From the IMG/VR virus record IMGVR_UViG_2700989510_000001, positions 1 to 13,999 of that record: a DNA stretch of 13,999 bases. The stretch is one strand, 5' to 3'. Below, one piece after another: positions 1-13,999 of the stretch (the first letter of the stretch is position 1; each line of letters begins with the position of its first letter). The notes beneath the pieces were generated by a model, which saw only the letters and a list, made by a program, of their open reading frames with translations, made no database searches and was not told the origin of the DNA. The DNA comes from a virus. Lineage: Duplodnaviria; Heunggongvirae; Uroviricota; Caudoviricetes. A program made the translations under genes and the position numbers.

Positions 1-156
1 TTACTCCTCAGGTTCGTAAGCTGTGAAGACAGCGACCTCCGTCTGGCCGGTTCGGATTCGTACCTCGCAGAGGTCTTTCCTCGTTACCAGTGCCGTCACA
101 ATGACGGTTAAACAGATGACGATCAGGGCGATTAACATCGCCTTTTGCTGCTTCAT
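1..156 (-). CDS. hok: Hok/Gef family type I toxin, 51 aa
   Basis: Minus-strand translation MKQQKAMLIALIVICLTVIVTALVTRKDLCEVRIRTGQTEVAVFTAYEPEE: one N-terminal TM helix plus the conserved Hok motif (LTRK.LCE..R.G..EVA.F.AYE). AGGAG sits about 9 nt upstream of the ATG at 156; TAA stop at 1-3. The six-frame ORF extends in frame to 213 (70 aa), but the 51-aa form matches Hok family length. Confidence 0.8.
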   Translation of the reverse strand: MKQQKAMLIALIVICLTVIVTALVTRKDLCEVRIRTGQTEVAVFTAYEPEE

Positions 157-402
157 AGCCTGCTTCTCCTTGCCTTTCGGCACGTAAGAGGCTAACCTAC
201 GTTTGTGAAGCATAGATTGGGCCTCAGATTAATGTTAAACGTCTTGCAGGACGCGTAATGTTAACTGGGGCTTTTCTCTATCTGCCTTTTGGTGTTCATG
301 CCTGAGACAGATAGCCTCAAGCACCCGCAGCAATTCTACTTAACTCTCGCTTTACCGCAAACCGTTTTTACCCGATATGGGAATTCCCATATCGTAATGA
401 AT

Positions 403-507
403 TCAGTTCCCTAGTCGATCCATCAAAAACACAACCAGGCAGTAAACGCCCACAACAGCAATAACAGCCAGCGCACCTTCCATTGCCAGTGAAATATCAT
501 CCGACAT
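403..507 (-). CDS. hypothetical small hydrophobic peptide, 34 aa
   Basis: Hand translation of the minus strand gives MSDDISLAMEGALAVIAVVGVYCLVVFLMDRLGN with TGA stop at 403-405. A strong SD (AAAGGAGGGAAT) immediately precedes the ATG at 505-507. Below the 60-aa cutoff of the ORF track. Single predicted TM segment. Confidence 0.35.
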   Translation of the reverse strand: MSDDISLAMEGALAVIAVVGVYCLVVFLMDRLGN

Positions 508-622
508 ATTCCCTCCTTTGGTGTGAATCCCGGCGAACGTTTTTACCCCCACCGACAAATAACATATACTAAAAAATCAATAGCTATAGCAACGCCTGTA
601 ATTGCAAAGGCTTCAGGCCAGA

Positions 623-1336
623 TCATTGGCGCACCTCCTGCGGCGGTTCTGGTAGCGGCATCCAGTCGGTTACATTGCGGCTCTGTGTTTCGAAAAATTC
701 ATCACCATTACGGACTACATCAAAAAACTCACCGTCTCGATATTGCGCATAAAGAACGAATGCGCCATCACATAAAATAATTACGTGCTGACCATCATCC
801 GGCATTCGCTCACTACAGCTTATCCAACCATCCGGAGTTACCGGATAGTTGGTTGACGTTTCCGAGATTTCCCGAAAATTATTGGTTGACGAACCCTTAT
901 TTTCCCGAAAGTTTCCAGCCTGAAGCATGGCGGCGCGGCAGGCGTTCCATATTTCGGCAGCAATATCGCGCTCGCTATCGGTTAATTTGTACGTTGAAAC
1001 ATAGCCAGAGAGCATTTCTACGTTTTCCGGAGTTGCTTCTTCAGGCACTACCGGTGCTGGCTCACGTATTACAGGCTCGCCCATGCGTGATTCTCCCTGC
1101 GCCTCTTTCACCATGTGGTCATTGATTTGCTCCAGTCGCCGAACGTGCTCATCAGCTTCAAGCGCTCGCCGTTTCCAGATGGACAGGTCTTCACGAGCGC
1201 CCTGATATGCGTCACCGTATTCGCCGTTAAATACTGGCGCTGGCGGGGCGATGCGTCCAAGCAACTTATTTACCTCTTTCGCCATCGCGTCATATTTATC
1301 TAAATAGCGATTAGCTTCTAAGCAGACTCGGTGCAT
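623..1336 (-). CDS. prophage protein with C-terminal DUF551-like domain
   Basis: 237-aa ORF. C-terminal region WISCSERMPDDGQHVIILCDGAFVLYAQY...VTDWMPLPEPP resembles the DUF551 signature as I recall it. No convincing SD at the 1336 ATG; an internal ATG (MAKEV, about 1288) is an alternative start. Confidence 0.7.
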   Translation of the reverse strand: MHRVCLEANRYLDKYDAMAKEVNKLLGRIAPPAPVFNGEYGDAYQGAREDLSIWKRRALEADEHVRRLEQINDHMVKEAQGESRMGEPVIREPAPVVPEEATPENVEMLSGYVSTYKLTDSERDIAAEIWNACRAAMLQAGNFRENKGSSTNNFREISETSTNYPVTPDGWISCSERMPDDGQHVIILCDGAFVLYAQYRDGEFFDVVRNGDEFFETQSRNVTDWMPLPEPPQEVRQ

Positions 1337-1536
1337 CTGATCTGAGTTAACTCGTTTAACTGGATCTGCTTCCAGCTATGCCAGTGCAATTTTGAATAAC
1401 TCGCCCTATACCCGTGCCATCCCTGAATTGGGGTAGCATTTCGCAATCGCTATTTTTAATTTGGCTTCTTCGATTAATTTCTCTTTGGTTAATTCAGTCA
1501 CTTTTCATTACCGCCCTTTCGGGCGGCCTCCTGACA

Positions 1537-1749
1537 TTAATCGTTGTGATAACTCATAGCTTCATTTGCAGCATCAACTGGATCAACATCCCACCAGCAA
1601 TAATTTGGGTCGACACCTTCAGGTGTCCACGGCTCTAATTCATTTTTTGCCGCATTCTCGTCGCCAGTAATTTTAAAAATCTGCTCTGAGAACTTTTTCA
1701 CCCACTCGTTATATTTTTCAGCGTTAATAACTTTCTGTGCGTTTGACAT
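1537..1749 (-). CDS. hypothetical prophage protein, 70 aa
   Basis: ORF with ATG at 1747-1749 preceded by GGAGGT at optimal spacing; TAA stop at 1537-1539. Acidic small protein, no recognisable family. Confidence 0.65.
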   Translation of the reverse strand: MSNAQKVINAEKYNEWVKKFSEQIFKITGDENAAKNELEPWTPEGVDPNYCWWDVDPVDAANEAMSYHND

Positions 1750-1797
1750 TGATATACCTCCGGTTAAGGATTAAATTTTTAACAGAGCTAAATTTAA

Positions 1798-2154
1798 TTA
1801 TTCAGTTCTGGATTTTGTCACCCTGCGTATCCGCGCTTTCACGTTACGCTCAATCTGAATTAGCTTTTCTATATTTCTCCGCCTTTCCCGTTCCTCCTGG
1901 CGCAAGATCCTTACATCATCTGCCAGTCTGGTTTCTCTTTTCGCCACAGAGAGCATCCAGTCAAATGGCTCCACAACTGCACCGCAGATTTTACAGCGGA
2001 CCTGACGCTCTTTTTCGTCAACCCGGACAGAGGCGTGATGGCAATATGGTCTTTCCGATGGCTCATAGAGAAAATTAACCTGATTACGTGGGTCATCCTC
2101 TTTTACCGGAAATAAAACGATATTGCTTAACTCATCTTCTGGTTTTATTTCCAT
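1798..2154 (-). CDS. hypothetical protein with putative zinc-ribbon (C-x-H-H ... C-K-I-C)
   Basis: 118-aa ORF. Strong SD (AAAGGAGAGGAGC) directly upstream of the ATG at 2152-2154. Start overlaps the end of the upstream gene by 23 nt. Cys/His cluster PYCHHASVRVDEKERQVRCKICG. Confidence 0.7.
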   Translation of the reverse strand: MEIKPEDELSNIVLFPVKEDDPRNQVNFLYEPSERPYCHHASVRVDEKERQVRCKICGAVVEPFDWMLSVAKRETRLADDVRILRQEERERRRNIEKLIQIERNVKARIRRVTKSRTE

Positions 2155-2851
2155 GCTCCTCTCCTTTGATGCGAATGCCAGCGGCGCGGATTGCAGCGAT
2201 GACTTCAGAAACTTTGTATGCCATTACCGTTTGGTAATCATCGTGAAAATCTGTTCGATGAAGCATGCTGCTACGTTCTGGGAGCGATATTTCCCGTGCT
2301 TCCAGTTCTGCAATGCGCTTCTCTGCGGATTCCAACGCCGCAACCAATTCGTCTACAGTTCCGGCAGCTTGCAGTGCGTAATCGGTAATAGCCATCTCAT
2401 GATCAATTTCAGTACCGTTCTCATTCGTTGAGGTGATAGCAAAATAATCAGAGTCGATTTCGTTATCAGCTAAGTGGCGTAGCGTATCGGCAACAAGCCG
2501 GCCGTTTTCGATTAGCAGCTTCCCTTCCGTAAGCGCAATCTCCTCGTTCTCCTGGTCGCGTGATTTGATGTATTGCTGGTTTCTTTCCCGTTCATCCAGT
2601 AGTGCCAGCGCAACATTTGGATTAAAGGCAGCAATAAATTCAGCGTTTGCGTAAGCCTGAGCATCTGTTTCAACCAGGCAGTTAACATGACATTCTGCAA
2701 TTACGCCACCGGGTTCTCCTTTCCATTTTTGACAAACAAAAACTCCTGTTATATTCCCATGCTGATTGCCCGATGTATGCCCTACGATGTAGCATCCTTT
2801 AGTTGCTTTCTCTGCTGCTTCACGAAGCGCCTCATAGTTAACCTCTCTCAT
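2132..2851 (-). CDS. Ead/Ea22-like prophage protein
   Basis: 239-aa ORF. N-terminus ...YEALREAAEKATKG... resembles lambdoid Ead/Ea22-like early proteins as I recall them. AGGAGGTGG SD upstream of the ATG at 2849-2851. ATGA start/stop overlap with the upstream gene. Confidence 0.75.
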   Translation of the reverse strand: MREVNYEALREAAEKATKGCYIVGHTSGNQHGNITGVFVCQKWKGEPGGVIAECHVNCLVETDAQAYANAEFIAAFNPNVALALLDERERNQQYIKSRDQENEEIALTEGKLLIENGRLVADTLRHLADNEIDSDYFAITSTNENGTEIDHEMAITDYALQAAGTVDELVAALESAEKRIAELEAREISLPERSSMLHRTDFHDDYQTVMAYKVSEVIAAIRAAGIRIKGEEHGNKTRR

Positions 2852-3144
2852 TGAGCCACCTCCTGATAAATCACCGTATGTCCCAGTTTCTCCGCCAGTG
2901 CCAGCTCTGCCTTAGCGCCCGCTGACCGCTGCCAGCCATTCAGCATGTAAATCGCATCCACGCAACGAATCATTGCCATGCAAATATCCATGTAGTGCGG
3001 CTGTGTCAGCCCGTCCGGAAGTACTGCCGGGTTTAAGACTGTATGCCCTTCCCGTTTCAGTTCCTCTTCCGCCTTGTGGAACGCCTCACGGTTGAAATTT
3101 TTATACCCGGTCATCGGACCGGCGATATAAACCCTCACCCTCAC
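2848..3144 (-). CDS. DUF4406-like (nucleoside 2-deoxyribosyltransferase-like fold) protein
   Basis: 98-aa ORF beginning (M)RVRVYIAGPMTGYKNFNREAF, the N-terminal motif I associate with DUF4406. GTG start at 3142-3144 with AGGAGGT 6 nt upstream; GTGA overlap with the upstream stop. Confidence 0.75.
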   Translation of the reverse strand: MRVRVYIAGPMTGYKNFNREAFHKAEEELKREGHTVLNPAVLPDGLTQPHYMDICMAMIRCVDAIYMLNGWQRSAGAKAELALAEKLGHTVIYQEVAQ

Positions 3145-3533
3145 TCCATCACCTCCTGAAAATTACCCCGATAGAACGCCAGCACACGCTGCATAACTTC
3201 GCTCTGGCGGCACTCACGACAAATTATGTTCTGCCGTCTGTTGTAACGACGTATTTCTCCGTCAGGTAACTTTCGAATCAGTGTCGGGTCAGCAGCCTTC
3301 TCCGGTGTCTTACGCCATACGCGATACGCCTGCTCTGATAGAAATACCCCGCAACCAGAGAGCCAGACATCACCACTGGCCGCAAGCGCACCAGATAAAC
3401 GACGAATAGCGGTCTTACTGACACCCGTTTTATCTGCCAGTTGTCGAAAAGTTTCTCGTCCGCTCAGGCGCACGAATTCCACAATGCGCGCCCTCACTTC
3501 TTCCCGCTCTTCTGGTGTAAATACTTTTGCCAT
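3141..3533 (-). CDS. hypothetical protein with probable HTH
   Basis: ORF track gives 3141..3548, but that first codon is TTG. The in-frame ATG at 3531-3533 (MAKVFTPEE...) has GGAGG 5 nt upstream and lies just after the upstream stop (3549-3551). Segment ETFRQLADKTGVSKTAIRRL looks like a helix-turn-helix. Confidence 0.7.
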   Translation of the reverse strand: MAKVFTPEEREEVRARIVEFVRLSGRETFRQLADKTGVSKTAIRRLSGALAASGDVWLSGCGVFLSEQAYRVWRKTPEKAADPTLIRKLPDGEIRRYNRRQNIICRECRQSEVMQRVLAFYRGNFQEVME

Positions 3534-3548
3534 AAGCGCCTCCGGCAA

Positions 3549-4274
3549 TCACTTTTCCGACACAATACGACCGGATGAATCGACAATCTGCCGAACAATA
3601 TCCCGGTGCTTGTTCAGCTCCCGCAGCGCGGCGCAGACACGCTCCCACTTCTGAACCTGACCTTTTGCCCGGCGCAGCTCGCGGTTAGCCACATGCAGCG
3701 ATGGTAAAATCAGACCATCCGGATGTTTTCTGGTGAACAACGGCTGTGACTGCACTGTGACCGCCACACTTTCAGTTTTTATTTCTTCCTGTGTTTCCGC
3801 TTCCCGGACTGGTAACGCAACACCTGTTGGCTGAGGAAAGGCTTTACCATCGGTTTCCACTACGGATGCAGCTTCCGGCTCTGCCGGTAAATCAGCACCC
3901 GGTATGCAGTAACGAAATTTACCGCCCTGATTCACGCGAATCAGACGCCCTTTGCTGATTGCCATGGCCAGCGATGAATTCGCCCGGCGGGAGGTAATCC
4001 CGAACATCAGTGCCAGCTCATCCGCCGTTTGTGGGCCATGTTGTTCAATCGCCTCAGTCAGCATTTTCGCTGTCACTTTCGGTACCGGTGACACCGGTTC
4101 ACTTTCACCAGCCTGAATCAGCCACCACATCGACCCCTTGTTATCCGCTTCACCGCGGCGCTTCAGTTTCCACAGTTCGTTGACCGCATCTTCACGGCTG
4201 ATTCCAAGGCGGGCCGCCACTACCTGTGAAGAGGCTCTTTTCAGTGCTTTCAGTGCGTCAAATACGGTTTCCAT
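3549..4274 (-). CDS. prophage protein with two winged-helix-like segments (DUF1627-like)
   Basis: 241-aa ORF. ATG at 4272-4274 with GGAGGAAA SD. HTH-like segments [25 protein letters not shown] and [29 protein letters not shown]. Confidence 0.75.
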
Positions 4275-4307
4275 TAAAATTTCCTCCGATAAAATCGTTT
4301 CTCAGAT

Positions 4308-4970
4308 TCAAATAAAACCAGCTGCCTTCCGGCGTTCGTATTCCTGTTTCAGCCGTTCAATTGGCGTTGGCCCTTGCGGGTGTTTCGCCCCTTCCAGTTG
4401 TCGTCGCACTGGCGGAACACTCATCCCGTTACCAACATGCTTTGCCCATTTCGTCAGTTGCCGTTCCGCAAGTCGTTTTAACTCACCCTGCGTCATCTGG
4501 CGCTCAATCCCTCTGGTACGCATTTCGAGGCAGATGTGGTACAGCACAGGCTGTGGCCACGGGTATTTATCACTCCCGTCGTATCGCCAGGATTCATTGC
4601 GCCAGCGCCGGTACTCTTCCATCACGGCATCCACCGTAAGACCAAATGGATTTGCCCCACTCTCCGAAATCAGCGCAACAAACTCAGCCAGGTCCGGGGG
4701 CCACGTTTCACCCGCCCGGCAGCGGTCCATGCACTGACGGCAGACCAGACGGATTTGCTGTTCAGTCATCGCACCAATCTGGGCAATCCAGAGCTTCGAA
4801 GGTGCGGCCCCGTTCTTCTGAGTCCAGCGGTTCGAATACACCTCCCCCATAAGCTCCCACAGCTTCCAGGCCGTTTCCGTTGCTGATAAATCCGTTTTCA
4901 CGTTCCCACTGTTCGCGTGCTGCCCGGATTTCCTGAACTGCCCGTGATGCCGTGCCACCTGGTGCTGCAT
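4308..4970 (-). CDS. replication protein P-like (putative DnaB helicase loader)
   Basis: C-terminal half (...YPWPQPVLYHICLEMR...ELKRLAERQL...) parallels lambda P (...YPWKSNAHYWLVTNLY...ELRRKAADEL...) from memory. Start uncertain: the ATG at 4970 (AGGGGG SD) overlaps the upstream gene by 209 nt; an in-frame ATG at 4850 (GGGAG SD) is the alternative. Confidence 0.7.
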   Translation of the reverse strand: MQHQVARHHGQFRKSGQHANSGNVKTDLSATETAWKLWELMGEVYSNRWTQKNGAAPSKLWIAQIGAMTEQQIRLVCRQCMDRCRAGETWPPDLAEFVALISESGANPFGLTVDAVMEEYRRWRNESWRYDGSDKYPWPQPVLYHICLEMRTRGIERQMTQGELKRLAERQLTKWAKHVGNGMSVPPVRRQLEGAKHPQGPTPIERLKQEYERRKAAGFI

Positions 4971-5793
4971 GGCTTACCCCCTTGCTGACTGGTTTTACCT
5001 GTGCCCTGACGTGCTGCACGTGGCGGGCAAATTTCTGCTCCCACTGAACCTGCGTGAAAACCTTCCCTTCCGCCATCCAGTAATCCCGGAATGCGGCAAG
5101 CTCAGCAGGTGTAAATTCCGGCTCAGGCAGAGCCATACCCCACACTGCTGCCCGTTGTCGAAAATCCGGCGACGGCTGCCAGACAGTAGTCATCGAAAAT
5201 TTCCCGATCGGTTCGCTCAGGCCGTCCAGGTATTCAGGTTCGGCTGTCTGCAACGGCGCACCATTCGACTCACTGGTCGGAATACTCTCGCGCGCGTTAT
5301 GTGTGGGGTTTAATTCTGTATCTGTATCTTTATCTGTCGTGACTTGTCGTGACAGATGCGTGACACGTCGTGACTCATCGTGACAATCAGCATTATGTTT
5401 CCGCAGCTTTTCCCGCTCCCGCTGCGCTCTCTTGCGCTCTGCCGGGGATTTTGCCGTTTGCGAAACGTTACCATTGTCCTCTTTCAGCACCTGACGTTTT
5501 TCCCATCCGGAAATAAGGTCACCATCCAGAACCCGCCCCTGCATTGCATGCAAAATTGAATCAATTACGTCTTCCGTCACATCAAGCGCACTTGCTAAAT
5601 CTTCCGTCGTGACATCAATGTGACCACGTAGTGACACGCCGTGACATGTCGTGACATTTCGTGACGCGCTCACCAGAAGATGGATATACACTGCCATCAC
5701 TGTTGCGATTGGCTGTCCTGATACCCTGGCAATCGTTCGCCACTTGGGGTCATTTGGCATGTCATGCCACAATCTGAGCCAGGCATTAGCCAT
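4762..5793 (-). CDS. replication initiation protein (O-like role) with DnaT-like C-terminal domain
   Basis: Segment GKFSMTTVWQPSPDFRQRAAVWGMALPEPEFTPAELAAFRDYWMAEGKVFTQVQWEQKFARHVQ closely parallels the C-terminal domain of E. coli primosomal protein DnaT as I recall it. The ORF track starts at a GTG (5799); the ATG at 5791-5793 has AGAGGTGA SD. The gene contains two iteron arrays. Confidence 0.8.
   Translation of the reverse strand: MANAWLRLWHDMPNDPKWRTIARVSGQPIATVMAVYIHLLVSASRNVTTCHGVSLRGHIDVTTEDLASALDVTEDVIDSILHAMQGRVLDGDLISGWEKRQVLKEDNGNVSQTAKSPAERKRAQREREKLRKHNADCHDESRRVTHLSRQVTTDKDTDTELNPTHNARESIPTSESNGAPLQTAEPEYLDGLSEPIGKFSMTTVWQPSPDFRQRAAVWGMALPEPEFTPAELAAFRDYWMAEGKVFTQVQWEQKFARHVQHVRAQVKPVSKGVSHAAPGGTASRAVQEIRAAREQWERENGFISNGNGLEAVGAYGGGVFEPLDSEERGRTFEALDCPDWCDD
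5312..5386. repeat. iteron array 1 (putative phage origin element): TATCTGT repeats followed by 5 x (T/G)CGTGAC at about 10-bp spacing
   Basis: TCGTGAC at 5337, 5347, (GCGTGAC 5358), 5368, 5378, i.e. one per helical turn, all in the same orientation, preceded by tctgtatctgtatctttatctg. Lies inside the initiator gene. Confidence 0.6.
5605..5667. repeat. iteron array 2 (putative phage origin element): 6 x GTGAC(A) at 10-11 bp spacing
   Basis: GTGAC at 5609, 5620, 5631, 5641, 5651, 5661 with 10-11 bp periodicity, same orientation as array 1, about 270 bp away and inside the same gene. Confidence 0.6.
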
Positions 5794-5861
5794 ACTCACC
5801 TCTTCTGATACCGAACTTTACCCACGAACTTCCGAAAGAAATCCGGTATAAATATTGTTGG

Positions 5862-6287
5862 TCAATGCACAACAACTGCATTACCAGGCTGACCACCACT
5901 GTTAGTCAGGGTGCCCCAGGCGATCGCTACAGCGATAAAATCATCCACATCTTTCACCAGCCGATCCCGTCGTTCGACGATCTCCCGGTAATATTCAGAA
6001 CTGTGACTGCGCATACGGGCCACCAGCAAAGGCGGCATCGCCTTTTCGATCGCCGGTAACAGCGCCTGAATTTTTTCAACCGCATCAGGCGTATCCTTCT
6101 CCACCCAGCGGAAAATTTTCTGGGTATTACGGGCCAGGGCTTCCGGATGGCTGTCGTCGTACAGTTCCGGGAACGTCATCCCAAGTTCGAAATAAGTCCG
6201 GGCTATTTCAGCTGCAGGCACTTTCTCACCATCAGGATATGCCCAGGCATTCATCGCCATGCGGATGTGTTCATGTTTGATTTTCAT
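5862..6287 (-). CDS. CII-position protein, YdaT-like
   Basis: 141-aa ORF starting MKIKHEHI, which I recall as the N-terminus of Rac YdaT-family proteins. ATG at 6285-6287 overlaps the upstream stop (ATGA). Sits between the cro-like gene and the replication initiator, the lambda cII position. Confidence 0.65.
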   Translation of the reverse strand: MKIKHEHIRMAMNAWAYPDGEKVPAAEIARTYFELGMTFPELYDDSHPEALARNTQKIFRWVEKDTPDAVEKIQALLPAIEKAMPPLLVARMRSHSSEYYREIVERRDRLVKDVDDFIAVAIAWGTLTNSGGQPGNAVVVH

Positions 6288-6511
6288 GAATCATTTTTCC
6301 TTTCGTTCGAGGTGTTATCCTTCTTTTTGTAAAGTTCTGGGTTCAACGATAATTTTCCCTTGGAGTATGCAACTGCTTCAGCAGCCCTCCCCTTGGGAAC
6401 TATTTCGCCGGGACGCTTACGCCACATGTATATAGCTTCTCGGGTTACCCCATAAAAATCAGCGACTCTTTGGACAGAACCAAAAAACTGGACAAGTTCA
6501 TCAACTCGCAT
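6284..6511 (-). CDS. Cro-like HTH regulator (YdaS-like)
   Basis: 75-aa ORF with HTH segment VQRVADFYGVTREAIYMWRKR. GGGGGTG SD upstream of the ATG at 6509-6511. Divergent from the cI-like repressor across a 98-bp operator region. Confidence 0.75.
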   Translation of the reverse strand: MRVDELVQFFGSVQRVADFYGVTREAIYMWRKRPGEIVPKGRAAEAVAYSKGKLSLNPELYKKKDNTSNERKNDS

Positions 6512-6609
6512 TTCACCCCCTTAAAACTAAGTATTTTTAGATTAAAGGGTAATTTTTTTTAGGTCAATACAATCTAAAATAATTTATATTCAATTCGCGG
6601 GAGAAAATA
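6512..6609. promoter_or_regulatory. divergent immunity promoter/operator region (pR-like leftward, pRM-like rightward)
   Basis: 98-bp AT-rich intergenic region between divergent cro-like and cI-like genes. Inverted repeat ATTTTTAGATT (6533-6543) / AATCTAAAAT (6571-6580). Leftward candidate promoter TTGACC-17-TAATCT (minus strand; GGTCAA at 6562-6567 on plus). Rightward candidate -10 TATATT at 6585-6590. SD GGGAG before the cI ATG. Confidence 0.5.
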
Positions 6610-7254
6610 ATGGAAAGCCTTGGCATTAGGCTTAAGAAACTCAGAAAAGACAAAGGTCTGACCCAAGTTGAACTTGGCAAGCTTTCTGGCGTAACTGGGG
6701 TAACAATAGGATACTGGGAGAAAGATCTAAACGAACCAGGTAGCAAAGCTCTTAGTAAATTAGCCCTAGCACTAGGCACTACTGAGTCCTATCTCCTGTA
6801 TGGAGTATCATCTCCTGAATCATCCCTTGTGCAGAAAAATCCAGGTACCCAAATCCCATACCTTTCTTGGGGAGAAGCGATTTCTTTCCTAATATTAAAA
6901 GGAGAGAAAACTATGGGAACTGTCGACAGGATCACCACATTCTTTGATGTCAAGGAGGGAGATTTTGCCGTTTCAATGCCTGATGATACTATGCACAATC
7001 CATCAGGGTCCCCAAGCATTCCAGTTGGAGCCACAGTGATCATGAGGCCTGGCGAAAAATATAAAAATGGTAGCATCGTCGCAGTAATAGTCCCAGATCC
7101 ACTCACAAACGAACCATCCATGACTATAAAAAAATTAGTTATTGATGGAAAGCTCGTGTACTTAGCCCCCCTTAACCCACGCTATCAATCATCCTTACTT
7201 ACACCGGAATGTAACATCGTTGCTGTAGCAAAAGGTGTTCAGTTCAGCCTCTAG
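6610..7254 (+). CDS. cI: cI-like prophage repressor: N-terminal HTH_XRE + C-terminal S24 (LexA-like) peptidase domain
   Basis: 214-aa ORF. HTH LTQVELGKLSGVTGVTIGYWE. C-terminal block TIKKLVIDGKLVYLAPLNPRYQ parallels lambda cI [21 protein letters not shown] (catalytic Lys region). Ser-Met in AVSMPDD is the candidate nucleophile. Confidence 0.9.
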   Translation: MESLGIRLKKLRKDKGLTQVELGKLSGVTGVTIGYWEKDLNEPGSKALSKLALALGTTESYLLYGVSSPESSLVQKNPGTQIPYLSWGEAISFLILKGEKTMGTVDRITTFFDVKEGDFAVSMPDDTMHNPSGSPSIPVGATVIMRPGEKYKNGSIVAVIVPDPLTNEPSMTIKKLVIDGKLVYLAPLNPRYQSSLLTPECNIVAVAKGVQFSL

Positions 7255-7278
7255 CTCCCGCTTTGCCCTGTAATCAGA

Positions 7279-7303
7279 GGTCGGCTTTGTCGGCCTTTTA
7301 TCT
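7279..7303 (+). terminator. possible intrinsic terminator after cI
   Basis: GGTCGGC-TTT-GTCGGCC can pair as RNA only with two G-U wobbles, followed by TTTTATCTT. Weak. Confidence 0.3.
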
Positions 7304-7323
7304 TAAAAATATTTACATTCAAC

Positions 7324-7352
7324 TTGACGGCAAAACTAAATATTCTTATATT
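7324..7352 (+). promoter_or_regulatory. candidate sigma70 promoter for the downstream moron
   Basis: TTGACG (7324-7329), 17-nt spacer, TATATT (7347-7352): near-consensus -35/-10 with optimal spacing, between the cI stop and the next rightward genes. Confidence 0.5.
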
Positions 7353-7528
7353 CATTGCAACCCACCCCGCTTCACAGAATGCAGGGCAATACTTCGAGTT
7401 ACCAGGCAGTGGTCAGGGGTTAAGTAGCCAGCCCGAGGCGTAAGAACATGACGGCAGGGTTCAACTTTAATAACTATGCAGCAGGTTTTTGTTCCGCTAC
7501 CCCGGCGTTAAGGGGAAATGAGGTCAGC

Positions 7529-7681
7529 ATGGATACTATCGATCTTGGCAACAACGAATCTCTGGTATGTGGCGTGTTTCCCAATCAGGACGGCACGTTT
7601 ACCGCGATGACGTATACCAGAAGCAAAACGTTTAAAACTGAAGCTGGCGCGCGTCGCTGGTTAGCCAGAAACACTGACTGA
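7529..7681 (+). CDS. small hypothetical protein (50 aa; 77 aa if started at 7448)
   Basis: ORF track gives 7448..7681. The ATG at 7529 has GAGG 5 nt upstream; the 7448 ATG has a poorer SD. Sequence ...GVFPNQDGTFTAMTYTRSKTFKTEAGARRWLARNTD. Stop TGA overlaps the downstream ORF. Confidence 0.5.
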   Translation: MDTIDLGNNESLVCGVFPNQDGTFTAMTYTRSKTFKTEAGARRWLARNTD

Positions 7682-7692
7682 TGAGGTTGACG

Positions 7693-8331
7693 ATGGAATT
7701 TAAAGATTTACCTCCTTCAATCCAGGAGATTGCAGCACACACACTTCGTCATCGTCTGAACGAACTTGAATTGGAATCGGTAACGAAAAAAGACACTGAT
7801 AATATGGCTCGTAATGTGCGCGATGCGTTTACCGGATTGTATTTCTGTGCGTCTATAAATAAACACGACTCAGAGAGTGTGGCAAATAAAATTGCAGAAA
7901 CGACAGCGCAAAACATCAATACGAAACCAACGGAAGAAGAAATTGATCAGTTTGCTCATGATGCTGGTTTAAAAAACAAGAAAGAAAAATCGCCATATGC
8001 GGGGAACATGTTTGTTTATGACAATCTCATCAGAATTCGTGGCGAAATTCCGGCGGAATACCTGGCAAGAGTCCATCAGGCATTGCTTAAAAATTTGGAA
8101 ACAGAATTATTTGATGGCAACACTAACGGTTTCTTCATGGTATCAGGCCTTGAGAAAGACTGGGATGCAGAAAAACGCTGGAATGTTGCTACATGGTTAT
8201 TCAGTAACAGAGCCGCTGCACTGGAAGCTTCGGCATGTATTTGCGGCCTGTTCTTAACAGACCACAAATATAATCTGGATGTGTACAGTTATATTTACGC
8301 TGAACACGGTCCACTCTGGATTGACTGGTAA
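7693..8331 (+). CDS. hypothetical protein, 212 aa, AT-rich moron gene in the rexAB-equivalent position
   Basis: ORF track starts at 7681 (ATG overlapping the upstream TGA); the ATG at 7693 has GAGG 6 nt upstream. AT-rich relative to flanks. No TM segment and no recognisable family. Co-oriented with and downstream of cI. Confidence 0.75.
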   Translation: MEFKDLPPSIQEIAAHTLRHRLNELELESVTKKDTDNMARNVRDAFTGLYFCASINKHDSESVANKIAETTAQNINTKPTEEEIDQFAHDAGLKNKKEKSPYAGNMFVYDNLIRIRGEIPAEYLARVHQALLKNLETELFDGNTNGFFMVSGLEKDWDAEKRWNVATWLFSNRAAALEASACICGLFLTDHKYNLDVYSYIYAEHGPLWIDW

Positions 8332-8541
8332 TTATAAGGAAACACCAGCAGGGCCGCGGCGACCAACAGAACGATTAAAATCAATAATGCCATTATAAAG
8401 GACATTATTTAATTTATCGTCGAATGCTGATTCTGTGAGCCTCAACTCTGAATGAGTTTTTAATAACCCTGATTGCCTGAGTTGATTTACCAGGCATTCA
8501 ATCTGTTTTTCAATAAGCGGATTTCTTTTTTTGTTTGGCAT
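8332..8541 (-). CDS. hypothetical small protein, 69 aa
   Basis: ORF track gives 8332..8553; the second ATG (8539-8541, MPNKKRNPLIEKQ...) is preceded by GGAGGATAAA. Its stop codon directly abuts the stop of the convergent 212-aa gene (TAATTA at 8329-8334). Confidence 0.5.
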   Translation of the reverse strand: MPNKKRNPLIEKQIECLVNQLRQSGLLKTHSELRLTESAFDDKLNNVLYNGIIDFNRSVGRRGPAGVSL

Positions 8542-8940
8542 TTTATCCTCCATTGAGGTTCTGGGTTAAAAATGGAGACCAACACGCTGTCACGTGTGGT
8601 CGTGCGCCGGACACGGATAAGAATCCGGTACTGACAGTTTACTGAAAGGATATTTCCCTGAAAAGTCAGGGCATAACGCGAAAGCGTACGGCGAAGCTCT
8701 TTCCCTTAGAAGGCTTGTCGTTAGATTTCTTCGAACGTGCGCTTCCGGTTGTGGCAATCCGCGAAATGGCGCGGCGGTAAGTATGGCGGGGTTATTCCTT
8801 CCCCATTGAGGACACCGGGTTGTCAGGTTGACCATACGCTTAAGTGACAACCCCGCTGCAACGCCCTCTGTTATCAATTTTCTGGTGACGTTTGGCGGTA
8901 TCAGTTTTACTCCGTGGCTGCTCTGCCGCCCTTTTTAAAG

Positions 8941-9088
8941 TGAATTTTGTGATGCGGTGAATGCGGCTCAGCGCACGCGGAACAGTTAAAACCAAAAACA
9001 GTGTTATGGGTGGATTCTCTGTATCCGGCGTTAATTGTTAACTGGTTAACGTCACCTGGAGGCACCAGGCACCGCATCACAAAATTCA
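8941..9088. repeat. perfect 19-bp inverted repeat pair flanking a 110-bp segment
   Basis: Left arm TGAATTTTGTGATGCGGTG (8941-8959); right arm CACCGCATCACAAAATTCA (9070-9088), its exact reverse complement. The match does not extend on either side. The right arm ends 17 nt before the ATG at 9106. Confidence 0.6.
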
Positions 9089-9105
9089 TTGTTGAGGACG
9101 CGATA

Positions 9106-9294
9106 ATGGAAACGTTATTACCAAACGTTAATACGTCTGAAGGTTGTTTTGATATTGGTGTTCTGCTCAGTAACCGGGAGTTTACTGAAGATGCCATTAA
9201 TATGAGGAAATATGAGCCTTATCTGCTCAATGATAATTCCATACTTTCCCGAATTGCTCTTCTTGAACTTGGTATTTTCGGAGAACGTCAATGA
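9106..9294 (+). CDS. small hypothetical protein, 62 aa (kil position of early-left operon)
   Basis: ATG at 9106 with GAGGA SD (ORF track frame begins at 9001). Stop overlaps the next ATG (ATGA at 9291-9294). First gene after the ORF-poor region and upstream of the exonuclease. Confidence 0.5.
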   Translation: METLLPNVNTSEGCFDIGVLLSNREFTEDAINMRKYEPYLLNDNSILSRIALLELGIFGERQ

Positions 9295-9461
9295 CTTCAG
9301 CATTTGCACTGATGATGACGGTTTTTCTTATAACGGGTGAATCACAGAATGTGATTACCGGAATTTATGCCAGTAAAGAATCCTGCCTCCAGGCAAGAGA
9401 CGAGCAAAAAATTTCTGGTGAATGCCTCCCGGTAAAAAAAAGTATCGCTGTACCTGAATAA
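9291..9461 (+). CDS. small hypothetical protein, 56 aa, hydrophobic N-terminus
   Basis: Hand translation MTSAFALMMTVFLITGESQNVITGIYASKESCLQARDEQKISGECLPVKKSIAVPE, TAA at 9459-9461. Translationally coupled (ATGA) to the upstream ORF. Below the ORF-track size cutoff. Confidence 0.5.
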   Translation: MTSAFALMMTVFLITGESQNVITGIYASKESCLQARDEQKISGECLPVKKSIAVPE

Positions 9462-9572
9462 CGAAACACCGGCTGGATAACCCTCCAGCCATATTAACAC
9501 CATACCAACGGATTAAAAATGCCAGCAATGGCAGGGATTTGTTCACCCTTAAATCTGTAATGAGGTTTATCA

Positions 9573-12032
9573 ATGAGCACTGATAAAGAAGAATTTGCGC
9601 TATATTGCGAAGCAAAAAATGACAAAGTCAGAAAACGTCTGGGAATTAAAGGTGGTTTTTACTGGACTACAGCAAAAAAATTATCTGTTGCCATCTCCCG
9701 CTGCATTACCGCAATGGATGACAACGATTATGATGAAGACGACTTTAAAAAACCCGTTCGCGTCCATTTACCCGTTGTGAATGACCTTCCACCTGAAGGC
9801 GTGTTTGATACCGAATTCTGCAACCGATACGAAAAAGGCGGGGAAGATGGCATTACAATGGTATTTATCGCGCCCTCTCCCTCCGTGCAGGAGAAACCAG
9901 CCAGTACTGACAATACCAACGTCAACGGCGAAGACATGACGGAGATTGAGGAGAATATGCTCCTGCCGGTTTCTGGTCAGGAGCTGCCCATTCGCTGGCT
10001 TGCGCAACACGGCAGCGAAAAACCAGTAACGCACGTTGCACGGGAAGAACTTCAGGCATTACATATAGCACGGGCGGAAGAACTGCCGGCTGTTACTGCC
10101 CTGGCCATTTCCCACAACACAAAGCTGCTCGACCCGCTGGAGATTCGCGACCTTCATAAACTGGCACGCGACACTGACAAAGTTTTCCCTAATCCCGGTA
10201 ATTCAGACCTGGGACTGATAACTGCTTTTTTCGAGGCATACCTGGACGCTGACTACACTGATCGGGGTCTGCTGACAAAAGAGTGGATGAAAGGAAATCG
10301 TGTTTCGCGTATCACCCGTACGGCTTCCGGTGCAAATGCCGGTGGCGGGAACAAAACCGATCGCAATCCGAATTTAGTACACACCTTCGATACGCTGGAT
10401 GTGGAGATTGCAGCAGCCACACTTCCGATGGATTTTAATATTTATGAAATTCCGGGCAGCGTTTATCGTCGCGCAAAAGAAATCGTCCTGAAAAGAGAAA
10501 GTCCGTTCAAAGAATGGTCCGCAGCACTTCGCGCAACCCCGGGTATTCTGGACTATTCCCGCGCCGCTATTTTTGCACTTATCCGGAGCGCTCACCCTGA
10601 GTTTTATCACTACCCGGGACGCCTTCAGGGGTATATCAACGCCTACTTAACGGAGACTGATCACGAGAACCCCAGCAAGGAAACTCTCACTGCTGCACGA
10701 CATACACCGGAAAAAGATATCCTGGAAGAAGTTAACCGCGAACTGGCTGCTAAGCAGGAAACAGAAGAAGAAAATGATGAAGAAAAACCGCAACCATCTT
10801 GCGCAATGGCAGATGAACAGGCAACGGCTGAAACAGTGGAACCGGATGCAACTGAACATCATCAGGACACGCAGCCGCTGGATGCTCAGTCACAGGTAAA
10901 TTCTGTTGATGCGAAATATCAGAAACTGCGGGCAGAACTCCATGAAGCCCGGAAAAACATTCCGCCCCAAAATCCTGTCGATGCAGACAAATTACTGGCT
11001 GCCTCTCGCGGAGAATTTGTTGAAGGGATTAGCGACCCGAATGATCCGAAATGGATTAAGGGGATCCAGACCCGCGATTCTGTGTACCAGAATCAGCCAG
11101 AAACGGAACAGAACGACCAGAAAGCGGAACAGAACAGCCCAAATACGCAACAAAACGAGCCAGAAACGAAACAACCTGAACCAGTAGTGCAACAGGAACC
11201 GGAAAAGATCTGCACCACCTGCGGTCAGACCGGCGGCGGCAACTGCCCTGATTGTGGCGCGGTGATGGGCGACGCAACATACCAGGAAACATTCGATGAC
11301 AAGAACCTGGTTGAAGTTCAGGAAGACGATTCGGAGAAAATGGAAGGCGCTGAACATCCACACAAGGAGAATGCTGGCAGCGCTCAGGACCACGCCAGCG
11401 ATAGTGAAACTGGCGAGACGGCAGATCCCTTAATTACGGTGAACGGTCATCACGTTATCACATCCACCAGCAGGACGTGTGACCATCTAATGATCGACCT
11501 TGAAACCATGGGAAAAAATCCTGATGCCCCGATTATCTCAATAGGTGCAATATTTTTCGATCCGCAAACCGGAGATATGGGACCGGAATTTAGTAAGACT
11601 ATCGATCTGGAAACTGCTGGCGGAGTCATTGATCGGGACACCATTAAATGGTGGCTTAAGCAATCACGCGAAGCGCAATCTGCCATTATGACCGATGAAA
11701 TCCCGTTAGATGATGCACTGTTACAATTGCGGGAATTTATCGACGAAAACTCCGGTGAATTCTTTGTTCAGGTCTGGGGAAATGGAGCCAACTTCGACAA
11801 CACGATTTTGCGCCGTTCATACGAACGGCAGGGGATCCCCTGCCCGTGGCGTTACTACAACGATCGCGATGTGCGCACAATCGTTGAGCTGGGGAAAGCC
11901 ATAGACTTCGATGCCAGAACGGCTATTCCATTCGAAGGTGAGCGCCATAATGCACTTGATGACGCCCGTTACCAGGCAAAATACGTTTCAGTTATCTGGC
12001 AAAAACTGATCCCGAGTCAGGCTGATTCTTAA
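9573..12032 (+). CDS. prophage exonuclease: RecE-like N-terminal region + zinc ribbon + C-terminal DnaQ-like DEDDh 3'-5' exonuclease domain
   Basis: 819-aa ORF with GAGGT SD. N-terminal blocks ([70 protein letters not shown]) match what I recall of the RecE (exodeoxyribonuclease VIII) N-terminal region. [16 protein letters not shown] is a zinc-ribbon-like motif. C-terminus carries DEDDh motifs: MIDLETMG (D-x-E), [12 protein letters not shown] (D), HNALDDARY (H-x3-D). Confidence 0.9.
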
Positions 12033-12042
12033 TGTTCAACTG

Positions 12043-12074
12043 TCGCCGGTTGTGACTGGTATTCTGCAACCGGC
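12043..12074 (+). other. 9-bp-stem hairpin between exonuclease and excisionase genes
   Basis: CGCCGGTTG (12043-12051) / CAACCGGCG (12066-12074), perfect 9-bp inverted repeat with 14-nt loop; no downstream U-tract. Confidence 0.3.
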
Positions 12075-12104
12075 GCTCGTCTGATGTAAGAGATAAAGAA
12101 AGCG

Positions 12105-12356
12105 ATGAGCGAAGTAATCATGATTGTCTCTCCCGGCAAATGGGTATCCGAAGAGCAGTTAATTGCGCTGAAAGGAATAAAAAAAGGTACGTTAAAAAAG
12201 GCCCGGGAAAAATCGTTTATGGAAGGAAGGGAATATAAGCATGTCGCTCATGACGGTATGCCATGGGATAACAGTCCATGCTTTTACAACCTGGAAGAAA
12301 TTGATCGCTGGATTGAGCGCCAGGCATCTGCAAGACCAAGACGTCATCTTGCTTGA
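12105..12356 (+). CDS. xis: excisionase-like protein
   Basis: 83-aa ORF immediately upstream of the integrase on the same strand. Contains a GREY motif reminiscent of lambda Xis (DGREY). Start could also be the ATG at 12120. Confidence 0.65.
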   Translation: MSEVIMIVSPGKWVSEEQLIALKGIKKGTLKKAREKSFMEGREYKHVAHDGMPWDNSPCFYNLEEIDRWIERQASARPRRHLA

Positions 12357-12390
12357 CTAAAAGCAACACGAACCAATGAGAGAAGCTGAA

Positions 12391-13671
12391 ATGAAATATC
12401 CGACAGGCGTGGAAAACCATGGAGGGAAATTACGTATCTGGTTTGTTTATAAAGGTGTAAGAGTCCGGGAAAATCTTGGGGTTCCTGACACAGCAAAAAA
12501 CAGGCGCATTGCAGGTGAGCTACGCGCCTCTGTTTGTTACGCAATAAAAACTGGCGCTTTCGACTATGCAAAACAGTTTCCCGCCTCACACAATCTGGAA
12601 AAATTTGGTGAGGCCCGACAAGATTTAACCATAAAAGAACTGGCTGAAAAATTTCTGGCACTGAAAGAAACTGAAGTCGCAAAAACGTCACTCAACACGT
12701 ACCGTGCCGTCATCAAAAATATTCTGAGCATAATCGGTGAAAAAAATCTTGCATCATCGATTAATAAAGAAAAATTGCTGGCGGTACGTAAAGAGTTACT
12801 GACTGGATACCAGATCCCCAAAAGTAACTATATTGTTACACAACCAGGGAGATCGGCTGTTACCGTAAATAATTACATGACAAATCTTTACGCCGTGTTC
12901 CAGTTTGGTGTTGATAACGGTTATCTGGCAGACAATCCATTTAAGGGGATCTCACCATTAAAGGGGTCGAGAACCATCCCGGATCCACTTTCGCGGGAGG
13001 AGTTTATCCGCCTTATTGACGCGTGCAGAAATCAGCAAGCCAAAAATTTATGGTGTGTTTCCGTTTATACTGGGATTCGCCCTGGTGAACTCTGTGCGCT
13101 TGGATGGGAAGATATAGATCTGAAAAATGGAACAATGATAATCAGAAGAAATCTGGCAAAAGACCGTTTTACAGTACCAAAAACACAGGCGGGAACCAAT
13201 CGTGTGATTCACCTTATTAAGCCCGCAATCGACGCTCTCCGGAGTCAGATGGCACTAACGAGACTGAGCAAAGAGCATATCATCGATGTTCACCTCAGAG
13301 AATTCGGCAGAACAGAGAAACAAAAATGTACCTTTGTTTTTCAACCTGAAGTGTCAGCGAAAGTAAAAAATTATGGTGACCATTTTACCGTTGACTCAAT
13401 AAGGCAGATGTGGGACGCAGCGGTAAAGCGTGCCGGAATCCGCCATCGCAAATCGTATCAGTCGAGACACACTTATGCCTGCTGGTCGTTAACAGCAGGA
13501 GCTAACCCGGCATTCATTGCAAACCAGATGGGCCATGCAGATGCGCAAATGGTGTTTCAGGTGTACGGGAAATGGATGTCAGAAAATAATAATGCGCAGG
13601 TAACGCTGTTAAATACACAGTTAAGCGAGTTTGCCCCAACCATGCCCCATAACGAAGCGATGAAAAGTTAA
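12391..13671 (+). CDS. int: tyrosine site-specific integrase (lambdoid/Rac-type)
   Basis: ORF track starts at 12376; the ATG at 12391 (MKYPTGVENHGGKLRIWF...) has a GAGAAG SD-like element and matches the N-terminus I recall for Rac-type integrases. C-terminal catalytic box ...RHTYACWSLTAGANPAFIANQMGHADAQMVFQVYGKW (R, H-x-x-R, H, Y). Confidence 0.9.
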   Translation: MKYPTGVENHGGKLRIWFVYKGVRVRENLGVPDTAKNRRIAGELRASVCYAIKTGAFDYAKQFPASHNLEKFGEARQDLTIKELAEKFLALKETEVAKTSLNTYRAVIKNILSIIGEKNLASSINKEKLLAVRKELLTGYQIPKSNYIVTQPGRSAVTVNNYMTNLYAVFQFGVDNGYLADNPFKGISPLKGSRTIPDPLSREEFIRLIDACRNQQAKNLWCVSVYTGIRPGELCALGWEDIDLKNGTMIIRRNLAKDRFTVPKTQAGTNRVIHLIKPAIDALRSQMALTRLSKEHIIDVHLREFGRTEKQKCTFVFQPEVSAKVKNYGDHFTVDSIRQMWDAAVKRAGIRHRKSYQSRHTYACWSLTAGANPAFIANQMGHADAQMVFQVYGKWMSENNNAQVTLLNTQLSEFAPTMPHNEAMKS

Positions 13672-13814
13672 TTTTTTATTTATCAATTAGTTAGATTGAA
13701 TGACTCTTGAAATCCATAAATTCAAGCGCAGTGCCCAGCCATCCCGATACTGCTGCTTTCACCAAATCCTTAGTGCTTCTTTCATGTTTTTCTATTGTCA
13801 TAATGGTTATCTCT

Positions 13815-13882
13815 AAAAAAGAGGTAAGAAGCGTACTACTTACTCGCCGTTATTGGTATTATTCAGAAAAAGGTAAGCGTAC
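13815..13882. repeat. direct repeats AAAAAGGTAAG(AA)GCGTAC downstream of int; candidate integrase arm-type sites in the att region
   Basis: aaaaaagaGGTAAGaaGCGTAC (13815-13836) and agaaaaaGGTAAGCGTAC (13865-13882), about 50 bp apart, then a short palindrome GTCTGGTCAGAATCTGAC (13893-13910). Function inferred from position only. Confidence 0.35.
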
Positions 13883-13999
13883 AGCCTGAACCGTCTGGTC
13901 AGAATCTGACGAATTAGACAAAGTGGTGTCCACCAAATAAGTAGTGGGAACCAAAGTGTCAGATATGCAGAAAAATGTGACTCCCGGCAGGCGAAAAGG

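Follow-up and report, generated by a model that had tools for sequence, protein, structure and literature searches.

A three-dyad repressor/cro gap is very probably the right operator of a P22 immC-type immunity switch in a lambdoid prophage

INTRODUCTION

The c2 repressor of phage P22 binds 18-bp sites, the two half-sites of which lie one helical turn apart (PMC5175364). Its consensus operator, ATTTAAGATATCTTAAAT, is made up of TTAAG half-sites at that distance, and the central 4 bp are not contacted (PMC5175364). A change to C at position 3, the DNA9T(3C) substitution, lowers binding of the wild-type P22 repressor to non-specific levels (PMC4267663). A second well-described switch is that of CP-933P, a prophage of Escherichia coli O157:H7 that encodes PaaR2, YdaS, and YdaT. 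There, a 97-bp promoter/operator fragment lies between the CI and Cro analogues (PMC8630535, PMC9986795). The repeated operators, four 18-bp palindromes with the consensus GTTTAGTAA, overlap the divergent promoters PR and PRM, and a second set of operators is found at a PL. The YdaT site of this prophage, OM, was footprinted at the cro/ydaT junction (PMC9986795).

The locus described here lies in a stretch of 13,999 nucleotides (positions 1 to 13,999 of the IMG/VR virus record IMGVR_UViG_2700989510_000001), the whole of which is called the window below. The original prediction placed an immunity switch in a short gap between a cI-like and a cro-like gene and read two AT-rich inverted repeats in it as the half-sites of one operator. 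We find that the gap is very probably the right operator (OR) of a P22 immC-type lambdoid prophage immunity switch, and we give a corrected map of its operators (OR1 to OR3, OL1, and OL2) and probable promoters for an immunity type present in 474 of 5,426 complete E. coli genomes.

RESULTS

Gene content around the gap

The genes and transcript signals around the gap are the following.

6284 to 6511, minus strand: cro-like gene, 75 aa (Pfam P22_Cro, E 2.6e-9)
6610 to 7254, plus strand: cI/c2-like repressor gene, 214 aa (HTH_3, E 6.8e-12; Peptidase_S24, E 1.1e-10)
5862 to 6287, minus strand: ydaT-family gene, functional analogue of cII (Pfam YdaT_toxin, E 7e-10; PHROG 163, CII-like activator, E 1e-45)
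6599 to 6603, plus strand: Shine-Dalgarno sequence GGGAG of the repressor gene, read from the sequence and kept in the E. coli alignment
7276 to 7298, plus strand: hairpin and U-run, terminator of the repressor transcript (RNA fold -12.4 kcal/mol, z -2.2)

The gap between the minus-strand ORF at 6284-6511 and the plus-strand ORF at 6610-7254 is 6512-6609, exactly the 98 bp that had been predicted, and the Pfam matches and ORF coordinates bear out its description as the region of a lambdoid prophage from which the divergent repressor and cro genes are controlled. The closest solved structure to the 75-aa protein is N15 Cro (2hin), and the protein belongs to PHROG 409, transcriptional regulator. 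For the 214-aa repressor, the closest solved structure is the N-terminal domain of P22 c2 (E 9e-7), and the full protein is about 30% identical to the repressors of P22, 434, and phage 21. Past cro, the gene order is the YdaT-family gene, a DnaT-domain replication initiator, and a homologue of lambda P. On the other side, the stem of the terminator behind the repressor gene is conserved, with compensatory changes visible in the alignment of E. coli relatives, and 3′ of it lies an early-left operon of the Qin type, consisting of DUF1391/ydfA, the DicF small RNA, dicB, an 819-aa exonuclease gene, xis, and int. The DicF antisense RNA was located at 8880-8931 on the plus strand (Rfam RF00039, 75 bits), within the operon of the PL-like promoter described below, and dicB is annotated downstream of DicF in a near-identical O111:H8 prophage. 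A sok antitoxin RNA (151-326, minus strand; Rfam RF01794, 118.5 bits) implies that the window has a toxin-antitoxin locus of the hok/sok type at its left end.

The immunity module is 99.8% identical to that of an E. coli O111:H8 prophage integrated beside ompW, and versions that are 87 to 91% identical occur in the 474 complete E. coli genomes mentioned above (about 9%), including O157:H7, O26, and O111 strains. In a megablast search against phage genomes, only two records covered the module, at 84% identity; the comparisons therefore drew on the genomes of E. coli and of GTDB and on contigs of IMG/VR.

The long inverted repeat

The 98-bp gap has an A+T content of 74%. The inverted repeats about 27 bp apart on which attention had been focused are indeed present in it, ATTTTTAGATT at 6533-6543 and AATCTAAAAT at 6571-6580. 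Complementarity between the two is inexact (ATTTTTAGATT reads AATCTAAAAAT when reverse complemented); the perfect arms are 9 bp long, TTTTAGATT (6535-6543) and AATCTAAAA (6571-6579), with 27 nt between them. When mismatches are allowed, the arms grow to 23 nt with 74% complementarity. Exact inverted repeats of 9 bp or more turned up in 11.6% of 5,000 dinucleotide-preserving shuffles of the gap. By itself, the long repeat is therefore not beyond chance and has little weight, and it was rejected as a stand-alone signal. The count of repeated 7-mers in the gap was likewise uninformative.

Three local dyads in the gap and two beyond the repressor gene

Further inspection showed that the gap contains three local, imperfect 18-bp dyads with a 14-bp core of the form CTAA-N6-TTAG. 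These sites, together with two more that lie downstream of the repressor gene, are listed below; being dyads, they are given without a strand, and mismatches refer to the core.

6525 to 6542: OR1, AACTAAGTATTTTTAGAT; core 6527-6540, CTAAGTATTTTTAG, no mismatch
6547 to 6564: OR2, GGGTAATTTTTTTTAGGT; core 6549-6562, GTAATTTTTTTTAG, one mismatch; abuts the PR -35 hexamer
6572 to 6589: OR3, ATCTAAAATAATTTATAT; core 6574-6587, CTAAAATAATTTAT, one mismatch; contains the predicted PRM -10 hexamer
7301 to 7318: OL2, TCTTAAAAATATTTACAT; core 7303-7316, two mismatches; degenerate in the window
7334 to 7351: OL1, AACTAAATATTCTTATAT; core 7336-7349, one mismatch; in the spacer and -10 hexamer of PL

Within each OR dyad the centers of the half-sites are 10 bp apart, a spacing that would suit an HTH dimer, and the centers of successive dyads are 22 and 25 bp apart. 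The two repeats seen at first fall into this scheme, ATTTTTAGATT as the right half of OR1 and AATCTAAAAT as the left half of OR3, with OR2 between them. Hence, the repeats do belong to operators, but each is half of a separate local dyad and not one of two half-sites of the same operator, and the earlier reading had missed OR2 and the downstream OL cluster. The window's own version of the operator is roughly CTAAA-N4-TTTAG. OR2, OR3, and especially OL2 are degenerate in the window; the E. coli relatives match better at OL2 (TTAAATTAATTTAG) and OL1 (CTAAATACTTTTAG).

Three CTAA-N6-TTAG dyads with at most one mismatch were reached in 0 of 20,000 shuffles of the gap, a statistic that is post hoc in that the pattern had been read off 6512-6609 itself. 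Because of this, the real test of the dyads is their recurrence in unrelated loci. A semi-independent test inside the window was provided by a weight matrix built from the three OR sites alone and run over both strands of all 13,999 bases: the fourth and fifth best matches were at 7336-7352 and 7300-7316. These two flank TTGACG-17-TATATT, the best sigma-70 match near the repressor gene, and OL1, OL2, and this PL-like promoter are placed where the OL/PL of a lambdoid phage is expected. The sixth best match, ATAATTAAATTTAGCTC at 1785-1801 on the minus strand (score 13.9), occupies an AT-rich interval that separates two ORFs on the minus strand; it is probably a chance match, and it could be an extra repressor site.

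Predicted promoters

As the original prediction had proposed, the gap contains candidate divergent promoters along with operators, and this is supported at the level of the sequence. The assignments are as follows.

6562 to 6567, minus strand: predicted PR -35 hexamer TTGACC (GGTCAA on the plus strand)
6539 to 6544, minus strand: predicted PR -10 hexamer TAATCT, after a 17-nt spacer
6575 to 6580, plus strand: predicted PRM -10 hexamer TAAAAT, from its positional identity with the annotated P22 PRM -10
7324 to 7352, plus strand: PL-like promoter, TTGACG (7324-7329)-17-TATATT (7347-7352), 10 of 12 consensus positions matched

Leftward transcription from PR is predicted to begin some 20 nt ahead of the cro ATG, near 6532, so that OR1 would overlap both the -10 hexamer and the start. 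The hexamers are weak: TAATCT matches at three of six positions, and its counterpart in relatives reads TAGAAT, TAGTAT, or TAATAT. At the -35 position, GGTCAA hardly varies within the family. For PRM, a weak -35 hexamer, ATTTTT, was found at 6552-6557, and the predicted start is near 6587 or near 6597. TAAAAT at 6575-6580 is favored as the PRM -10 over the alternative TATATT at 6585-6590 because of the comparison with the annotated P22 PRM and because core positions 2 to 7 read TAARAT in O3, and in O3 only, in all 22 family representatives. Two other candidates were discarded. One, TACAAT at 6568-6573, was considered as the PRM -10, and relatives have TGCAAT there; the other, a plus-strand scan match (TTTATA-17-AATAAT, 6583-6611), has a -10 hexamer that overlaps the ATG, and its start would fall inside the gene. 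The PL-like promoter is 90 bp downstream of the repressor gene, at the head of the ydfA(DUF1391)-dicF-dicB-exonuclease-xis-int operon, and transcription from it is predicted to begin near 7359.

Recurrence of the dyads in relatives

The core bases TAA/TTAG show essentially no variation across the 43 distinct variants of E. coli, and the common polymorphisms (6545, 6547, 6549, 6569, and 6594) are in spacers. At this level, the block as a whole is no better conserved than its surroundings: 20% of the columns are variable from OR1 to OR3, compared to 19 to 22% in the flanking coding sequence.

More distant relatives were found in prophages of Arsenophonus, Phlomobacter, and Xenorhabdus, whose repressors are 45 to 53% identical to that of the window and have the recognition helix GV[TS]GVT[IV]GYWEKDLNEP. 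In three of the four prophages from these other genera, there are three dyads upstream, at spacings of 24 and 25 bp, and one or two downstream; the Phlomobacter prophage has two upstream and none downstream. A good example of the local symmetry is O1 of Xenorhabdus, ATCTAAACAAACTTAGAT, a near-perfect palindrome. A scan of IMG/VR added 80 loci with 50 distinct upstream regions, encoding repressors down to 31% identity with the helix V[ST][GD]VT[IV]GYWE. All 50 of these regions contain two or three dyads within 140 bp, at offsets of about -87, -63, and -38; as the loci were fetched by their recognition-helix peptide patterns, this is a co-occurrence in a biased sample that tests sensitivity, not specificity. 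In ten divergent loci that were inspected singly, one to three further dyads lie about 650 to 730 bp (up to about 830 bp) past the gene start, spaced 33 to 35 bp where they are paired. The consensus operator of the family is ATCTAAG-N4-CTTAGAT. By comparison, 26 control loci with other recognition helices, mostly non-phage Firmicutes regulators with upstream A+T contents of up to 0.85, gave one dyad match in total. No CTAA-N6-TTAG dyad was found in the upstream region of phage Tritos or in 2 kb of the P22 immunity region. The dyads thus co-occur with the helix V[ST][GD]VT[IV]GYWE in the relatives. A literature search for the operator strings and CTTAGAT returned no relevant paper. A repressor 93% identical to that of the window is also encoded on a 1.8-kb contig (JAIHTM010000357.1) of a metagenome-assembled genome labeled Collinsella sp. 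(Actinomycetota), where it is most likely a binning contaminant.

Two other readings of the gap can be set against these data. In one, ATTTTTAGATT and AATCTAAAAT would be the half-sites of a single long operator, bridged over about 36 bp by a repressor dimer or tetramer. This would fit the perfect 9-bp inverted repeat and the invariance of both arms in the E. coli variants. However, a repeat of at least that length arises in 11.6% of shuffles of so AT-rich a gap, each arm can pair with a closer sequence at a distance of 10 bp (CTAAG in OR1 and TTTAT in OR3), and a third dyad sits between the arms. It is the local pairing that all relatives keep, the Xenorhabdus palindrome among them, and the closest solved homologue, P22 c2, uses 18-bp sites (PMC5175364). 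We consider a single long operator very unlikely.

Equally unlikely is the view that the gap holds no specific operator, that its repeats are by-products of AT-rich divergent promoters, and that regulation takes place elsewhere. The base composition, the non-significant long repeat, the resemblance of the half-site TTAGAT to a -10 hexamer, and an E. coli-level conservation no higher than that of the coding flanks all agree with it, but other results speak against it: none of the 20,000 shuffles had three dyads in 98 bp, the same motif appears again at a second promoter (OL/PL), it recurs at conserved offsets in same-helix relatives with 31 to 53% protein identity, and AT-rich controls are nearly free of it. 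The interpretation of the gap as a three-site OR accords with the features of a P22 immC-type switch found here, namely divergent genes for an HTH and S24 repressor and a small Cro, three intergenic dyads that, as judged from the sequence, overlap the divergent promoters, and further copies of these operators clustered at OL/PL.

Comparison with P22, CP-933P, and lambda

The predicted promoter and operator positions agree nearly to the base with those annotated for P22 immC. Both loci have a divergent HTH and S24 repressor gene and a cro gene of the P22_Cro family, and in both, three 18-bp dyads lie in a gap of 80 to 98 bp, spaced by 23 and 24 bp in P22 and by 22 and 25 bp in the window. The PR -35 hexamer, TTGACT in P22 and TTGACC (6567 to 6562) in the window, abuts OR2 in each; the last bases of the annotated P22 OR2 overlap it, and the position of the window's OR2 matches. 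The PR -10 hexamer (TAATCT, 6544 to 6539, in the window) overlaps the inner edge of OR1 in both, the PRM -10 hexamer is in the left half of OR3 (TAAGAT in P22 and TAAAAT at 6575-6580 in the window), the PRM -35 is inside OR2, and OL1 lies between the -35 and -10 hexamers of PL. The predicted PR and PRM starts are about 55 bp apart, compared to about 53 bp in P22.

Differences from P22 are also apparent. There are two OL sites in the window compared to three in P22. The repressor mRNA would carry a leader of about 13 to 23 nt with a Shine-Dalgarno sequence, whereas in P22 the annotated PRM start precedes the c2 start codon by 4 nt. YdaT takes the place of C1 as the cII analogue, a Qin-type early-left operon (ydfA-dicF-dicB) that of gene 24, and the S24 cleavage site and nucleophile of the repressor are non-canonical, unlike those of P22.

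The difference that bears on specificity is small. The P22 operator, ATTTAAG-N4-CTTAAAT, and the family operator, ATCTAAG-N4-CTTAGAT, differ at one contacted base per half-site (T3 to C and A16 to G), a base at which the P22 repressor has already been shown to discriminate. The T at position 3 that marks the P22 immunity group is replaced by C, or by G at the symmetric position, in the sites of the OR gap and in OL1, or these are non-P22 in other ways; a match to TTAA-N6-TTAA with one mismatch is reached by the degenerate OL2 (7303-7316) alone. The pair of 18-mers that would embody the proposed single-base immunity difference is ATCTAAGATATCTTAGAT and the P22 consensus. On the protein side, residues Q21, V33, W38, E39, and E44 of c2 are kept in the window repressor; in the recognition helix, S31, N32, S36, and Q37 of the P22 group are aligned with T, G, G, and Y, respectively (S31T, N32G, S36G, and Q37Y), and beyond the helix there is N46G. 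Since C at position 3 was reported to reduce P22 repressor binding to the non-specific level, the immunity of this prophage presumably differs from that of P22.

In CP-933P, the short gap, the operators overlapping PR and PRM, and the second operator set at a PL are all as in the window, but the operators themselves differ from the window dyads: GTTTAGTAA, with at most one mismatch allowed, is absent from 6512-6609 and 7255-7447. In addition, the Cro analogue of CP-933P was described with an HTH_Xre motif, compared to P22_Cro in the window, and its repressor gene heads a toxin-antitoxin operon, whereas that of the window ends in a terminator. The comparison with known immunity groups that had been proposed thus matched neither the P22 operator nor the CP-933P consensus, and together with the altered recognition helix it supports the view that the operator marks a distinct immunity specificity.

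Phage lambda resembles the window in general logic, with a three-part OR flanked by the divergent genes for repressor and Cro, an OL cluster at the early-left promoter, and an HTH and S24-fold repressor. It differs in that its operator sequence is unrelated, its Cro belongs to a different fold family, its operator sites are 17 bp long compared to the 18-bp ATCTAAG-type dyads, and its promoter starts are about 82 bp apart compared to the predicted 55 bp or so. The switch is of ordinary textbook design, most like P22 immC, and adds a presumably new immunity specificity to a familiar class. Its conceptual value is modest; of side interest are the single base that separates its operator from that of P22 and the departure of the S24 site from the canonical form.

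The S24 domain and release of the switch

In the alignment, the repressor of the window departs from the features of SOS self-cleavage, an Ala-Gly bond and a Ser/Lys dyad. In the window clade, Ala-Ile aligns with Ala111-Gly112 of lambda cI, and Thr (in DDTM) aligns with the nucleophile Ser149; the Lys (K192) is kept. In related clades the pair is Ala-Met, Ala-Lys, or Val-Lys, each with Thr, and in Xenorhabdus it is Ala-Leu combined with Ser. All of the canonical features (VQ-AG, G[DK]SM, and Lys) are retained in more distant relatives that share the recognition helix. The replacement of Ala-Gly and Ser by Ala-Ile and Thr suggests that RecA-dependent self-cleavage has been lost in the window clade.

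These data bear on a modified form of the preferred explanation, in which the dyads are real but the switch is released unlike those of lambda and P22, by an antirepressor or other trans factor, or the prophage is non-inducible. We give this an even chance. In its favor are the Ala-Ile and Thr (DDTM) of the window clade beside the canonical distant relatives; on the other hand, Thr could conceivably serve as the nucleophile, and the linker alignment could be shifted. Another route of release also finds no counterpart in the window, which covers only part of the prophage: no antirepressor gene was found in it, and LexA boxes (CTGT-N8-ACAG, at most one mismatch) gave two matches compared to a shuffle mean of 3.8, both inside long coding ORFs and none in the control regions.

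A broader, tentative proposal, which we hold to be possible but rather less than probable, is that the repressors of this family vary naturally from c2 in specificity (ATCTAAG for ATTTAAG, and T-G-V-T-I-G-Y for S-N-V-A-I-S-Q with the valine kept) and include an E. coli/EHEC clade without self-cleavage. If so, a new immunity group would have arisen in nature by a one-base-pair switch in the recognition code of an HTH protein, and a lineage in about 9% of complete E. coli genomes, O157:H7 included, would silence DicF and DicB behind a repressor that SOS does not cleave. Such a repressor would have to be inactivated by some other route.

Proposed operation of the switch

In the mechanism that we propose, dimers of the 214-aa repressor would bind the dyads through the recognition helix TGVTIGYWE. 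With OR1 and OR2 occupied, leftward PR (TTGACC-17-TAATCT) would be covered, and cro, ydaT, and the replication genes would be silent; repressor at OR2 may activate PRM. OR3 would be filled by excess repressor or by Cro, and because it contains the rightward PRM -10 hexamer, its occupancy would shut off the repressor gene. At OL1 and OL2, the same repressor would occlude PL and keep the ydfA-dicF-dicB-exo-xis-int operon silent, so that it presumably guards an operon encoding the cell division inhibitors DicF and DicB.

Repressor synthesis after infection is probably started by YdaT, which, like cII, is encoded downstream of cro. The candidate site for it is near the cro/ydaT junction, the same junction at which the OM site of CP-933P was footprinted (PMC9986795).

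6277 to 6294, no strand: candidate YdaT (cII analogue) site, TTGATTTTCATGAATCAT, one mismatch to TTGATT-N6-AATCAA

Judged by its motif and position, TTGATTTTCATGAATCAT likely marks the equivalent of PRE, from which repressor synthesis would be established.

Within the DnaT-domain replication-initiator ORF (4762-5799, minus strand), there are six exact CGTGACA repeats in two clusters (5348-5385 and 5608-5656). The heptamer has seven copies in the whole window compared to a mean of 1.55 in whole-window shuffles, none of which reached seven, and the clusters look like origin iterons such as those in the lambda O gene.
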